A stretch of DNA of 64,000 bases from Candidatus Omnitrophota bacterium (GCA_029261065.1 JAJDCB010000006.1:64284-128283); one strand, 5' to 3'. Shown: positions 30,437 through 43,440, counted from the first letter of the stretch. The notes: generated by a model from the letters alone, not told the origin. Made by a program: numbers and translations.

Positions 30437-30590
30437 CCTTCAGGTTATGAGGACGTTATATGACTATGCTTATATTTTCTTGTTTTTATTAATGTTATCT
30501 ACTGGTAGGCTTTACAAAAAATTGATTTGCTGATATTTACTGCTTTTTGACTGTTAGCAGGCTTGTTTTGTTACACATAAGTTATCACTT
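30437..30590. repeat. Upstream element R1: block CCTTCAGGTTATGAGGACGTT plus three phased heptamers (TTTGCTG, TTTACTG, TTTGACTG) and TTGTTACACATA
   Basis: The same blocks occur at 37296..37380 and 43345..43440, in the same orientation relative to the downstream minus-strand genes. Confidence 0.6.
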
Positions 30591-30607
30591 TAAAATAACC
30601 CTTATGA

Positions 30608-31663
30608 TTATAACCGAATCCAATCTTTAATCTGAGGATGTTGAAAAATCATAGACTTTTGAACGGTTAGTTCCTGCCCACAACCATTCTCTTTAGCGCG
30701 ACGATACATGGCAATAGCAATAGCAACATCAACATAGGCCAAGCCAACAGCATTAAAATACACTTTTTCATCATCATTTTCACGACCCTTTTTCTCACCC
30801 TTTACAATATCTGTTAAATCTGCATAAATATCGTTATCTGTTAACTCACCATCTTTATACATCCGGCTTAACGTTTGCGTACGATGTTTAACTGTTCCCC
30901 AATCATCACACACAATTTTATCCATACCCTTAGCAACAGCATATTCATCTTCCCAACCACCAACATGACTATAAAAAGCACCAGGCTTAATCCATTGTGC
31001 TTTTAGTAATGGCGCTTGCACACTTGTAGCCGTAACAATAATATCTGCGCCATCTATTGATCGCTCTAAATTTGTTTTTGCTTCAATGAATGTAATATCT
31101 TTAAAAATAGGTTTCATCTCACTAATAAATTGCGCCTCCTCCACGTCTTCTTTTGCTGCAACTCGACACTCTTTTAAACTTGGCATAATAGTTTTCATAG
31201 CAATTAAATGCATTTTTGCCTGTTCACCAGCGCCGATAAATCCAATCGATTCAGCATCTTTCTTTGCTAAATGTTTGGCAGCCAAAGCCCCCATAGCCCC
31301 CACGCGCATATTTGAACACAATGTTCCTTCCATAAAAGCAATCGGAAATCCTTTTTCAATTTCAGAAAGAATAAGAACAGCTGATAAATTCTGCACACCA
31401 AACTTTACTGGATTAGGCGGAAAGACTGAAACCCATTTCATGCCGCAAATTTTATCTTTTAAAAATGTTGCTGGTAAACAATTAATACGTTCTTGAGTAT
31501 CTTCATTAAAAATCTGAACAATTTTCTCAGGAAACAATACTTCATTCTGACTAAAACTTACCAAAGCATTTTCAGCAGCTTCAATAGCCATCTTTAAATC
31601 TAAACACCCAGATTCTAATAAATCTTCTTGTGAAAAATATTTAGCCGTTATTTCATGTTTCAT
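30608..31663 (-). CDS. Ornithine cyclodeaminase/mu-crystallin family protein
   Basis: Rossmann motif IGFIGAGEQA and the family length of ~350 aa. Confidence 0.65.
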   Translation of the reverse strand: MKHEITAKYFSQEDLLESGCLDLKMAIEAAENALVSFSQNEVLFPEKIVQIFNEDTQERINCLPATFLKDKICGMKWVSVFPPNPVKFGVQNLSAVLILSEIEKGFPIAFMEGTLCSNMRVGAMGALAAKHLAKKDAESIGFIGAGEQAKMHLIAMKTIMPSLKECRVAAKEDVEEAQFISEMKPIFKDITFIEAKTNLERSIDGADIIVTATSVQAPLLKAQWIKPGAFYSHVGGWEDEYAVAKGMDKIVCDDWGTVKHRTQTLSRMYKDGELTDNDIYADLTDIVKGEKKGRENDDEKVYFNAVGLAYVDVAIAIAMYRRAKENGCGQELTVQKSMIFQHPQIKDWIRL

Positions 31664-31710
31664 ATCATTTTCCTTTTAACATAATTTTAAAGTACATTTG
31701 AAAGTTAATG

Positions 31711-32139
31711 TCAAATATGCTGCCGCTGCTCTAAAATAACAGAAATAGCATGACAAGCATCGACAGCTGTAAAAATACCTACCAATTTTTTATTTTGAAT
31801 AATAATTGCGCACCCATAATGATGCGCGGCCATTTCTTTAGCCACGTCAGACAAATGTGCATCTGGTTCAACGATATAAGGATTCTGATGATAAATATCA
31901 CTAACATGCATTTGTGATACATCTACATCCTTTAATGAACACGCTGTTTTAATATCATGATCACTTAAAACACCAGTAATTTCTCCATCACGCGTAACGG
32001 GTAGATGTCTAATTTCCAATTCTGACATTTTTGATTGGGCTTGAGCAATTGTTGACGTTTCTTCAATCGATACAGGTAAAGTTGTCATAAATTTTTGTAC
32101 CATTGGATTTTCTTTCGACATAAAATCTCCATTTATCAA
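31711..32139 (-). CDS. CBS-pair domain protein
   Basis: 142 aa with two CBS-like repeats. Confidence 0.65.
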   Translation of the reverse strand: MINGDFMSKENPMVQKFMTTLPVSIEETSTIAQAQSKMSELEIRHLPVTRDGEITGVLSDHDIKTACSLKDVDVSQMHVSDIYHQNPYIVEPDAHLSDVAKEMAAHHYGCAIIIQNKKLVGIFTAVDACHAISVILEQRQHI

Positions 32140-32280
32140 AAATTATTATTAAGAGAATACTATAGTATATAAAATTAAACTATCAAAAGTATAGAAATCT
32201 GTCAACTCACTTATAATTTCATGAACATTATCATACTATTATTACGCCTCGAAGCCCTTTAGCTAAATCATACTTAATGA

Positions 32281-32320
32281 CCTTCGGGTTCTGAACCCAC
32301 AGGACTTTTTTTGACCTGTT
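32281..32320 (+). terminator. Plus-strand intrinsic-terminator-like hairpin GGGTTC-T-GAACCC (extended, imperfect) followed by a T7 run
   Basis: Palindrome GACCTTCGGGTTCTGAACCCACAGGAC then TTTTTTT; the T-tract is only on the plus strand, although all annotated genes are on the minus strand. Confidence 0.4.
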
Positions 32321-40908: not shown

Positions 40909-40948
40909 ATAATAAACCTTTCTTCAAATTTTTGTTTATTGATACTGG

Positions 40949-42358
40949 TTACTTTTTATTTCGGCCATACGGACGTTTCCATTTTGATGCTTTTGGTTTT
41001 CTAGGCGAACCGGATGAAGCTTCTTTCTTTTGTGTCATTGATTTCTTTGGCTTATGTTGCGGCTTTGATTTTTTTACTGTGGATCGAGCTTTAGATGTCT
41101 TAGGCCTACTCTGTGTGTTTGCAGCTTCATACGTTTTTGTTTTCTTTGGTTTCTTTGGTTTCTTTGGTTTCTTTGATTTCTTTGATTTTTTTGGACGCAA
41201 ATCTAGACGAGATGCCGGTAATTTTCGATCAGGGTTAAAACCTTCTATCATCTGACGAGGTATTACCTGTTTAATCAAACGTTCAATATCCGCAAGTTCC
41301 TTAAATTCCTCAGCGGACACCAACGAAAAAGCATGTCCATTGGATCCAGCTCGACCTGTTCGCCCAATACGATGCACATAATCTTCAGCCACATTCGGCA
41401 AATCAAAATTAACAACTTGAGGAAGTTGATTAATATCAATGCCACGAGCAGCAATATCTGTTGCAACTAAAACCCGAACAACTCCCTTCTTAAAATCCGC
41501 GAGTGCTTTTGTGCGAGCTCCTTGACTTTTATTTCCATGGATCGCCGTCGCTGTAATTTTTGATTGTTCCAGATGTTTCGTTAGTCGGTTGGCGCCATGT
41601 TTTGTTCTACAAAAAACAAGAACTTGTTGCCATTTATGTTTATTAATTAATTTCGTAAGTAGCGCTGACTTACTTTTTTTATCCACCGGATGAAGCCACT
41701 GCTCGACCGTATCAACTGTCGTATTGCGTGGCGTTACTGAAATCTCAACTGGATTATTTATAATTGTTTTTGCAAGTGTACGAACTTCATCAGAAAATGT
41801 TGCTGAAAACAATAAACTCTGACGTTTCTTTGGAAGGTGAGATATTATCTTTCGGATATCCTTAATAAATCCCATATCAAGCATACGATCCCCTTCATCT
41901 AAAACTAAAACTTCAAGAGTCGTAAACTTAACGGCTTTCTGATTATAAAGATCCAGTAAACGACCTGGCGTTGCCACGAGCACATCAACACCCCGACGAA
42001 GTTTCTTCATTTGTGGATTAATCCCTACGCCACCGAATACAACGGCAGAACGCAAAGATAAATATTTACCATAAACCTCCACACTCTCGTGAACCTGTGC
42101 GGCCAACTCTCGGGTTGGTGTTAAGATAAGAACACGCGCTTGATTATGTTGAACCGGCTTTCCTTTTGCAAGACCATGCAAAATAGGTAAAACAAACGCC
42201 GCCGTCTTACCCGTGCCTGTTTGCGCCGCTGCCATAACATCTTTTCCTTTAAGCACCGCTTCAATACCCTGGGCTTGAATTGGCGTTGGTGTATCATATC
42301 CTTTATCAGCTATCGCCTTAAGAAGCGCGTCTGACAAACCCATTTCTGAAAATTTCAT
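40949..42358 (-). CDS. rhlE: DEAD-box ATP-dependent RNA helicase (RhlE-like) with a lysine-rich C-terminal tail
   Basis: Q-motif, Walker [24 protein letters not shown]; tail [17 protein letters not shown]. Confidence 0.9.
41140..41200. repeat. Tandem 9-bp repeat (TTTCTTTGG x4, TTTCTTTGA x2) inside the helicase tail coding region
   Basis: Directly visible tandem repetition; encodes KKPKKPKK on the minus strand. Confidence 0.8.
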
Positions 42359-42429
42359 AAGTTATCTTTTTTTAATTCTGTTTAATATAATTTTTACGGA
42401 AAAGTAACCCTAATTTTTGGGCGTTACCA

Positions 42430-42481
42430 CGCAACATGTTTTCATGTTGCGAAAAGGTAATGCCAGCTTTTGGGCATTACC
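42430..42481 (-). terminator. Two tandem perfect stem-loops; hairpin 2 (GGTAATGCC-8 nt-GGCATTACC) is followed on the minus strand by UUUU
   Basis: CGCAACATG-TTTT-CATGTTGCG (42430..42451) and GGTAATGCC-AGCTTTTG-GGCATTACC (42456..42481), nested in a larger imperfect palindrome TTTTTGGGCG...CGCCCAAAAA (42414..42491). Confidence 0.6.
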
Positions 42482-43172
42482 GCCCAAAAAACAAATAATC
42501 CGTATGTTCTTCATTGTTAAGAAATTTATGTATAAATGTTATCGGCTCAACACGCACCTCACGAAACACACCCCGCAAAGCATCTGCAAAAGGAGAATCT
42601 TGGGCATAAGACCAAACAGCAAGCACGCCATTCTCGTTTAAATGTTTACATGCCGCCTCAAGCCCTTCTCTAGTATAAAATTGTCCAATCTTCGTATCTA
42701 ATCGCTCATCAGGAGAATGATCGACATCAATGAGAATCACATCAAATTTCTTTTCTGGTTCACCAGCCAACTGCTCATAAATATCTCCTTGGACAATTTT
42801 CAGACGATCATCGCCCAAAAGCTCTTTAGATAACGGCACCAATCCTTCATTCATCCACGAAATAACCTGCGGTAGAAATTCAACAACCTCAAGAGATTCA
42901 ACTTGTTTGCTACCTAATGCTTCATACGCCGTATATCCTAACCCCAAACCTCCCACTAAAACAGTTAAATCATTCCCCCCATGCATCTTTAGGGCAATCT
43001 TTGATAATGCACGCTCAGAATCCGTATGATAACTACTCATTAAAAATTCATGATTAAGTGTAATTTCTGTCACTATTATTGTTGGATCTTGTAATGACCG
43101 ACGACGTCTTAAACACAACATCCCCAAAGAGGTTTGCTCATAGGCGAGTATTTCTAAATTTGATTCTGCCAT
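42477..43172 (-). CDS. Spermidine/spermine synthase-family protein (short form lacking the N-terminal domain)
   Basis: Methyltransferase-like glycine-rich LVGGLGLGYTAYEA and the acidic D..D region FDVILIDVDHSPD typical of polyamine aminopropyltransferases. Confidence 0.5.
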   Translation of the reverse strand: MAESNLEILAYEQTSLGMLCLRRRRSLQDPTIIVTEITLNHEFLMSSYHTDSERALSKIALKMHGGNDLTVLVGGLGLGYTAYEALGSKQVESLEVVEFLPQVISWMNEGLVPLSKELLGDDRLKIVQGDIYEQLAGEPEKKFDVILIDVDHSPDERLDTKIGQFYTREGLEAACKHLNENGVLAVWSYAQDSPFADALRGVFREVRVEPITFIHKFLNNEEHTDYLFFGR

Positions 43173-43344
43173 TTTCCTTCTTTACTCAAAGTCATTAGCC
43201 CCTCTTGGAATTTCGTTAAAGCATCGAAATTCCTAAACAAAATTAATATGACCTATCATACTCTTTATTTGAGATATTGCAAAATTGGAAGACAAGAACA
43301 GGCGAGATCTCAGCATCCACAAGCTACACGGAAACCACTGCGAC

Positions 43345-43440
43345 CTTCAGGTTATAAGAACGTTCAAAGTCTTTGCTGGTGTTTGCTGGTATTTACTTGT
43401 TCTCACGCCTGTTTTGTTACACATACTTTATCGCATTTTC
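43345..43440. repeat. Upstream element R3: CCTTCAGGTTATAAGAACGTT block, three heptamers (TTTGCTG, TTTGCTG, TTTACTT) at 10-bp spacing, TTGTTACACATACTTTATCGC
   Basis: Same family as R1 and R2; its 3' end overlaps the stop codon of the znuB-like gene. Confidence 0.6.

Follow-up and report, generated by a model that had tools for sequence, protein, structure and literature searches.

Organization of the element and its copies

The window analysed here is a stretch of 64,000 nucleotides (64 kb) from a Candidatus Omnitrophota bacterium (JAJDCB010000006.1, positions 64284-128283), in which an intergenic element of approximately 155 nt, as delimited by alignment and an nhmmer profile, is present in three co-oriented copies. 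The genome has a GC content of approximately 37% and is Omnitrophota-like; the SpeE-like protein encoded in the window is 82% identical to one of Candidatus Zapsychrus exili. The window has a negative GC skew throughout, and its gene-like open reading frames (ORFs) all lie on the minus strand. Each copy of the element lies in the interval from the stop of a minus-strand gene to the start of the gene that follows.

Read on the plus strand, the element is composed of block 2, heptamer triplet A, a middle block (CTGGTAGGYTTTA...), heptamer triplet B and block 1 (GYYTRTTKTGTTACAYATANNTTATCRC). It is of full length in copy 1 and in two relatives from other genomes, named L004 and L006. Both triplets are collapsed into one in copy 3, and block 2 is missing from copy 2. 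In the minus-strand reading the heptamers form two CAGYAAA triplets with 10-nt spacing beside the block 2 end, an arm-type repeated motif of putative protein-binding sites. A repeat search of the window recovered the copies as a 66-nt family with identities of 76-79%, and the alignment gave pairwise identities of 76-80% over a common stretch of about 64-66 nt. The whole 155 nt is conserved, most strongly in block 1 and block 2 and not in the heptamers.

30435..30588, minus strand: copy 1, full-length; nhmmer score 112 bits; found by patterns, repeat search and alignment
30588-30554, minus strand: copy 1, block 1
30553-30526, minus strand: copy 1, triplet B
30525-30491, minus strand: copy 1, middle block
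30490-30458, minus strand: copy 1, degenerate triplet A
30451-30435, minus strand: copy 1, tRNA-Met-like core
37289..37362, minus strand: copy 2, truncated; block 1 at 37362-37327, triplet at 37326-37300, middle-block remnant, no clear core
43342..43445, minus strand: copy 3, collapsed; 11-nt extension in common with L004 at 43445-43435, block 1 at 43434-43399
43398-43372, minus strand: copy 3, single triplet
43358-43342, minus strand: copy 3, tRNA-Met-like core with the anticodon mutated to TAT

The first-pass annotation had described three direct heptamers exactly 10 bp apart at each of three sites. The arrays are present where it placed them, at 30526-30552, 37300-37326 and 43372-43398, all on the plus strand, and shuffled sequences give a chance expectation of 0.07 for the pattern. 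The TTTRCTG triplets have the 10-bp spacing, and the third heptamer of copy 1 carries a 1-nt insertion (TTTGACTG). Also borne out were a conserved block after every array (block 1, at 30561-30588, 37335-37362 and 43407-43434 only, with 0 expected), a second block at two of the loci (block 2, matched at 30437-30457 and 43344-43364 only) and a degenerate copy of the latter near 49219, which is located at 49214-49230 and differs at 3 of 17 positions. In copy 1, block 2 and the main array are separated by another heptamer triplet, which is degenerate. The heptamer pair does not occur anywhere else in the window. Self-similarity at a lag of 10 nt, and again at 20 nt, is significant in copy 3, L004 and L006, and weaker and not significant over the whole of copies 1 and 2. 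The three repeats are non-random, and they belong to a family common to at least four genomes.

A tRNA-Met-derived core at one end of the element

In the minus-strand reading, block 2 (...CGTC-CTCATAACCTGAAGGT) corresponds to positions 32-48 of tRNA-Met, comprising the anticodon loop, the 3' strand of the anticodon stem and the variable loop. The 17-mer of L004 (CTCATAACCCGAAGGTC) matches the initiator tRNA-Met (tRNA-fMet) of E. coli exactly; the tRNA sequence was confirmed against 5,426 genomes. Among the tRNAs identified by ARAGORN in the fetched loci, tRNA-Met genes are the only ones that approach this core, and they do so at exactly positions 32-48. A scan of viral contigs with the block 2 pattern matched solely two prophage junctions, both of which carry the 3' half of tRNA-Met: the anticodon loop CTCATAA is followed by CCTGA, AGGTC, the T-arm, the acceptor strand, CCA and a terminator. 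In L004 a hairpin and then GCGACCA follow at the right distance for a tRNA 3' end, which is an anecdotal resemblance.

The 17-mer was searched for with up to three mismatches. The window contains four matches against 0.08 expected, all on the minus strand and all intergenic, and the one at 32279-32295 is an additional copy beyond those previously noted.

30435, minus strand: core of copy 1, 1 mismatch
32279..32295, minus strand: solo core, 2 mismatches (TTCAGAACCCGAAGGTC); GGG/CCC stem, no heptamer arm, intergenic, 140 nt upstream of a CBS-domain gene
43342, minus strand: core of copy 3, 1 mismatch
49214..49230, minus strand: solo core, 3 mismatches (CTCATAACCTAAAGTTT); no heptamer arm, intergenic, approximately 100 nt upstream of a small His/Cys ORF

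Unrelated loci totalling 0.97 Mb gave six matches at the same threshold. Four of these fall in genuine tRNA-Met genes or at the two prophage junctions, and the other two are weak matches with three mismatches. Separately, two heptamers GAAGGTC, the 3' end of the core, are located at 189-195 and 296-302 of locus L132, within 440 nt upstream of an RND pump orthologue (84% identical) that lacks the element. The pair could be an unoccupied core, or a chance occurrence given that the window shows no excess of the motif.

Relatives of the element and the modules they border

Scans of genome and metagenome collections with the block 1 pattern found true relatives in three places only: L004, from assembly JAGLNJ01, an Omnitrophota metagenome-assembled genome (MAG); L006, from assembly JAUIER01, the MAG '8_bin.41'; and L019, a metagenome contig with a partial copy. 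Approximately 1.1 Mb of fetched DNA yielded no additional copy. Over the common stretch, copy 1 is 89% identical to L006 and copy 3 is 86% identical to L004, compared with 76-80% among the copies within the window. At the protein level, the RND pumps of the window and of L006 share only 61% identity.

The best repeat of L004 is a 43-nt direct repeat at positions 1780-1822 and 6138-6180, 86% identical and 4358 nt apart, composed of GAAGGTC, a 12-bp hairpin and GCGAC(C)A. The repeats enclose a restriction-modification (Dcm-Vsr) module of approximately 4.4 kb that encodes Dcm, a 376-aa ORF, Vsr and a 271-aa ORF. The heptamer arm is positioned just inside the downstream repeat, and the TGA of the 271-aa ORF precedes GCGATAAC by 10 nt. 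The same outer arm sequence, GTTGGAAAAYGCGATAAC, is joined to different cargo, to ZnuB in copy 3 and to the unrelated 271-aa ORF in L004. On the other side, a HipB/HipA toxin-antitoxin module (6208-7677) ends 28 nt before the upstream 43-nt repeat, and therefore two defence-type modules are stacked at the same repeat in L004. In L006, a PD-(D/E)XK nuclease gene with 32% GC and the element with 34% GC adjoin host genes of 54-57% GC. The cargo includes restriction-modification, nuclease and HipBA genes.

Block 1 is retained 3' of the znuB stop codon in an 86% identical orthologue, whose contig ends 37 nt past that codon. It is missing in znuB orthologues of 80-81% identity, where the znu cluster is located among Bro-N, Fic or serine-recombinase genes. 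The cluster of a 407-aa ORF, ZnuA and ZnuB lies beside a large serine recombinase only in L130 (773-2491) and among Bro-N and Fic genes in L129 (179-1021 and 5097-9197), and these neighbourhoods suggest that the znu module itself is mobile. An IS200/RAYT-type transposase gene (Y1_Tnp) is located at 8322-8816 of L024, from Candidatus Zapsychrus exili, 1.2 kb upstream of the SpeE-like orthologue; no copy of the element is present there.

The element as a putative att-type recombination site

We lean towards interpreting the element as an attachment (att)-type recombination site, or the relic of one, in which a one-sided arm and a tRNA-derived core bound stacked gene modules. The interpretation builds on the anatomy of the element and the derivation of its core from a tRNA, on the direct repeats at both ends of a 4.36-kb segment in L004 and the change in GC content at the L006 copy, and on a patchy occurrence and the absence of RNA structure described below. 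The first-pass annotation had offered a short mobile repeat as an alternative to a regulatory array. That suggestion comes close to the interpretation favoured here, and the flanking duplications that it had named as evidence against a regulon were found, as the 43-nt repeats of L004 and, more weakly, as paired 17-nt cores in the window. In the window, as in L004, the layout would be a bare core, genes, and then arm plus core, with the core at 49214 paired with that at 43342 and the core at 32279 paired with that at 30435. The 49214 core would form the upstream boundary of a metal-handling module that extends from the His/Cys ORF to ZnuA/ZnuB and ends at copy 3, and the 32279 core that of a module with CBS-domain and cyclodeaminase genes ending at copy 1.

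We propose the following model, in which the recombinase, the direction, order and timing of the events and any present activity of the sites are presumed. A circular gene module would carry an attP consisting of a one-sided arm of approximately 135 nt and the 17-nt tRNA-Met-derived core. Read on the minus strand, the arm would present block 1 and then two CAGYAAA triplets at one-helical-turn spacing around the conserved middle block. A heterobivalent tyrosine integrase may bind the heptamers through its N-terminal arm-binding domain; alternatively or additionally, a winged-helix protein of the excisionase type could bind them as head-to-tail oligomers. The integrase would recombine the attP core with a core-like target to yield the order core, module, arm plus core, and later modules reusing the same core would build a head-to-tail stack. 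Arm-type motifs of about 10 bp spaced by one turn, and head-to-tail winged-helix filaments with one turn per protomer, are documented on att sites (PMC11963761), and a genomic island normally lies between a tRNA gene and the displaced fragment of that gene (PMC4383910). Since the examined DNA contains no integrase gene and no intact tRNA-Met, the copies in the window are most likely fossils or are mobilized only in trans.

Several observations weigh against this interpretation. No tyrosine or serine recombinase (Phage_integrase, Resolvase or Recombinase) was detected in the scanned ORFs of the window, L004, L006 and L019, and ARAGORN found no tRNA gene in the 64-kb window or in the 8-kb stretches of the same three loci. 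Identity to the tRNA does not extend past position 48, beyond which no copy has significant similarity to the T-arm or acceptor; canonical integration at an anticodon loop needs the whole 3' half, and therefore the tRNA would not be restored. The cores in the window are short, with one to three mismatches each, and copy 2 is without a clear one. In the window and the collections scanned, any part of the element occurs in only seven places: the three copies in the window, the full-length L004 and L006, the partial L019, and L128 with block 1 alone. The pair of SpeE-like and DEAD-helicase genes, which would lie inside one module, is syntenic in L027 without cores. The pairing of the cores into modules is a putative one.

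It is also conceivable, if doubtful, that Omnitrophota build arrays in a manner resembling integrons. Promoter-bearing modules of 2-6 kb without a recombinase of their own would be captured serially at the core by a trans-acting integrase, producing arrays such as that at 30.4-49.2 kb, and each module would end in a one-sided arm of six phased heptamers and a 17-nt mimic of the tRNA-Met anticodon arm.

Flanking genes and promoters

The three copies have unrelated neighbours. Copy 2 is followed by a coiled-coil porin-like gene with two possible starts, and in copy 3 the ZnuB-like ORF terminates at a TAA (43430-43428) within block 1.

Copy 1, minus-strand neighbours: upstream, ornithine cyclodeaminase-like gene, stop at 30608; downstream, RND pump, start at 30321
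Copy 2, minus-strand neighbours: upstream, VanZ-like gene, stop at 37503; downstream, coiled-coil porin-like gene, start at 37137 (or ATG at 37121)
Copy 3, minus-strand neighbours: upstream, ZnuB-like gene; downstream, SpeE-like gene
43255..43283, minus strand: the SpeE-like gene's own sigma-70-type promoter, outside the element; TTGCAA, 16-17 nt, TATGAT

The element is absent upstream of the SpeE-like orthologues in L024, L026, L027 and L028 (72-87% identical) and upstream of the RND orthologues in L029-L032 and L132 (74-84% identical). The SpeE-like promoter, TTGCAA and TATGAT separated by 16-17 nt, is conserved in L027 and L028 without the element, and it is there that their alignment with the window starts; in the window it lies between the element and the gene. 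The core of copy 3 ends approximately 60 nt upstream of the -35 hexamer, and the heptamer triplet is approximately 90 nt upstream of it. The core of copy 1 ends approximately 40 nt upstream of a candidate -35 hexamer that was read by eye and not called by the promoter scan. In L006 the element is 400 nt from the next gene, and in L004 the next gene is convergent, so that no co-oriented gene follows. These results on promoters, position and conservation do not fit an operator that evolves along with its promoters. The distances to the start codons in the window, about 115-205 nt, agree with the first-pass annotation; the position upstream of minus-strand genes, which it had noted, is automatic for any intergenic element here because every gene of the 64 kb is on the minus strand.

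Alternative explanations

The heptamers had originally been read as an OmpR/PhoB-type array that defines a regulon. Under this explanation, phosphorylated dimers of a regulator, for example a CpxR-like one, would bind the heptamers and activate the downstream promoters, which would make up an envelope- or metal-stress regulon. The 10-bp spacing of the direct repeats agrees with it, as do downstream genes that include the RND pump, the porin-like protein, an M50 protease in L019 and a cluster of extracytoplasmic function (ECF) sigma factor, LTXXQ and RND genes in L006. The minus-strand GTAAA-N5-GTAAA would correspond to the CpxR consensus. The claim of a regulon is nevertheless left unsupported by the absence of the element from the orthologous promoters of close relatives, whose core promoter is conserved, by the L004 copy that faces a convergent gene, and by the variable distance to promoters. 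It is weakened further by conservation that spans 155 nt including the tRNA fragment and peaks in block 1 and the tRNA piece rather than in the heptamers, by a similarity that is greater between genomes than within the window, and by the lack of any other heptamer pair in the 64 kb. An OmpR-type winged-helix domain (Trans_reg_C) was not found in the 47 ORFs of the window scanned with Pfam; other gene-sized ORFs, mostly below 27 kb, were outside that scan. We therefore regard a regulon as improbable. That the phased repeats form a protein-binding array is still a reasonable prediction from their sequence; the partner is likelier to be a recombinase arm-binding domain or an excisionase-type winged-helix protein than a response regulator.

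Movement by a transposase offers another origin for a dispersed and patchily distributed repeat. A non-autonomous element resembling a miniature inverted-repeat transposable element (MITE), with the heptamers as subterminal transposase sites and a captured or target-derived tRNA-like end, would account for the defined ends, the high similarity between genomes, the foreign composition in L006 and the short-read contigs that break within or beside the element, as in L128. Such an element is unlikely, as there are no terminal inverted repeats, no short target-site duplications at the ends of the element and no subterminal hairpins (the folding z-scores are positive), all copies have one orientation relative to the flanking genes, phage and plasmid collections contain no match, and the flanking repeats in L004 are 43 nt long and surround 4.4 kb of genes rather than the 155-nt element alone. 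A former att or mobile sequence may also have been co-opted at the DNA level as an operon boundary or insulator, a bend of phased T-tracts or a nucleoid-protein site. The element is always intergenic, starts at or no more than 140 nt from the stop of the upstream gene, lies upstream of the next promoter, carries T-runs phased at 10 bp and has kept block 1 3' of znuB in the 86% identical orthologue. However, no terminator or promoter signal above background was found in or beside the copies, the element is lost or absent in most relatives, and nothing sets co-option apart from neutral persistence; we consider co-option quite unlikely. Highly improbable, finally, is a transcribed RNA element, such as a 3' untranslated region or small RNA, a mimic of the tRNA anticodon arm or an antisense RNA to tRNA-Met. 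The fixed orientation relative to transcription would suit it, as would the presence on the mRNA strand of 17 nt in the sense of tRNA-Met. Against it, neither strand has a conserved structure (consensus folds of -3.7 and -10.9 kcal/mol over 175 columns), all six single-sequence z-scores (+0.5 to +1.5) indicate folds less stable than those of shuffled controls, there is no conserved promoter or terminator, and the would-be anticodon stem lacks a complementary 5' strand.

Other identities were considered and rejected. Rfam gave nothing at the gathering threshold in the window, and at E<=10 only chance-level matches around the L004 copy and none around copy 3; on these and the folding results, a structured RNA, riboswitch or small RNA was rejected. 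A small ORF on the plus strand was rejected by inspection: on this T-rich strand the common stretch is open in one frame in all three copies, but stops occur shortly before it in copy 1, no ATG is present in copy 3 and the frame is disrupted by a 1-nt indel. No intrinsic terminator or sigma-70 promoter inside the element exceeds the shuffled background, and motifs for ECF sigma, sigma-54, Fur/Zur, DnaA boxes, IHF and dif/Xer, inspected by eye, gave no match consistent across copies. An integron attC and a repetitive extragenic palindrome (REP) or bacterial interspersed mosaic element (BIME) were rejected because the element is not palindromic. A repeat of a diversity-generating retroelement, a CRISPR leader and a Tn7/Mu-type end were rejected as well, as no partner end or associated gene was found. 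Scans of viral contigs with the block 1 and heptamer patterns returned chance matches only, and BLAST searches against phages and plasmids returned nothing meaningful.

Comparison with known systems and implications

The element most resembles the attL and attR sites of tRNA-targeting islands and prophages, which are served by heterobivalent tyrosine integrases of the lambda, P4 and integrative and conjugative element (ICE) type. Both have tRNA-derived direct repeats at module ends and several arm motifs of approximately 10 bp in direct one-turn arrays, such as lambda P'1-P'3 and the five TGKTGGTATC sites of ICEMlSym (PMC11963761). The restriction-modification, nuclease, toxin-antitoxin and metal cargo, the compositional boundary in L006 and the patchy occurrence among relatives are alike as well. 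Unlike in such islands, there is no integrase or intact tRNA gene at either end, the arm flanks the core on a single side, and the modules are very small (1.9-6 kb) and have their own promoters. The tRNA identity of the copies in the window is limited to positions 32-48, so that integration could not regenerate the tRNA.

Cis-mobilizable elements (CIMEs) related to streptococcal ICEs are integrase-less and att-flanked, and grow by tandem accretion; they are described from Firmicutes, beside an ICE that supplies the integrase. The modules described here likewise have flanking att-type direct repeats, no recombination gene and a head-to-tail arrangement, and could in principle be mobilized by an external integrase. 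In contrast to CIMEs, no partner element is visible, and their mobilization is putative. Integron cassettes, which consist of an ORF and attC, share the co-orientation, the recombination site directly after the ORF and sometimes containing its stop codon, and the joining of different cargo to the same site sequence (ZnuB in copy 3, the 271-aa ORF in L004). An attC is, however, an imperfect palindrome that folds as a hairpin, whereas the element is non-palindromic and folds worse than shuffled controls, and the modules here contain several genes and promoters without an IntI/attI platform. OmpR/PhoB operators (the Pho box, the CpxR box and OmpR F1-F3) are alike in their direct 6-7-bp repeats with 10-11-bp centre spacing upstream of promoters; in contrast to the element, which is missing from orthologous promoters, they are short, are conserved with their target promoters and have neither tRNA fragments nor invariant flanks of 40 nt. 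The kind of feature is already known, and its details are undescribed: a one-sided arm, a 17-nt tRNA-Met core, integrase-less promoter-bearing modules and an Omnitrophota host.

If the att interpretation is correct, the 19 kb at 30.4-49.2 kb are a stack of horizontally acquired modules, for metal handling, polyamine and helicase functions, porin and sensor kinase, and cyclodeaminase, and not a co-regulated native gene set. This would change how these genes are interpreted in Omnitrophota MAGs, and the arm with its tRNA-Met core would provide a sequence tag for island boundaries and their integrase in a poorly studied phylum for which hardly any mobile elements have been described. Helical phasing of direct repeats ahead of genes does not, by itself, indicate a response-regulator regulon.

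Other features of the window

A near-perfect palindrome of 32 nt (TATATGAGTAGTCATATATAATGACTCATATA) at 30349-30380 on the minus strand overlaps a TATAAT directly upstream of the RND pump. It resembles a repressor operator that would act on the promoter of the pump itself, and is distinct from the element. The orthologous pump, which lacks a membrane fusion protein, is preceded in L006 (1269-6864) and L031 (7864-13135) by genes for a small protein, an ECF sigma factor, an anti-sigma factor and an LTXXQ/Metal_resist protein. The pump of the window (27193-30321) lacks this set and has the element and the palindromic operator in its place. The leader of the SpeE-like gene contains, at 43207-43233, an insertion of approximately 50 nt with a hairpin (GGAATTTCG...CGAAATTCC), which is absent from the orthologous loci in L027 (84%) and L028 (87%).

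Two paralogous small His/Cys-rich ORFs, at 12450-12713 and 48831-49094, share 72% DNA identity and are 36 kb apart. At 41123-41192, within the 3' portion of the DEAD-box helicase gene, a 9-nt unit (TTTCTTTGG, plus strand) is repeated in a run, presumably giving the protein a repetitive charged tail. A second repeat family consists of a 63-nt direct repeat, 86% identical, at 58533-58595 and 62788-62850, and an inverted partner at 62956-62985, 20 nt of which are 100% complementary to 58534-58553. The family brackets an AbiEii/DUF6088 toxin-antitoxin pair, an MscS-like channel and a 334-aa ORF, and may be a hairpin-type mobile repeat or another module boundary.

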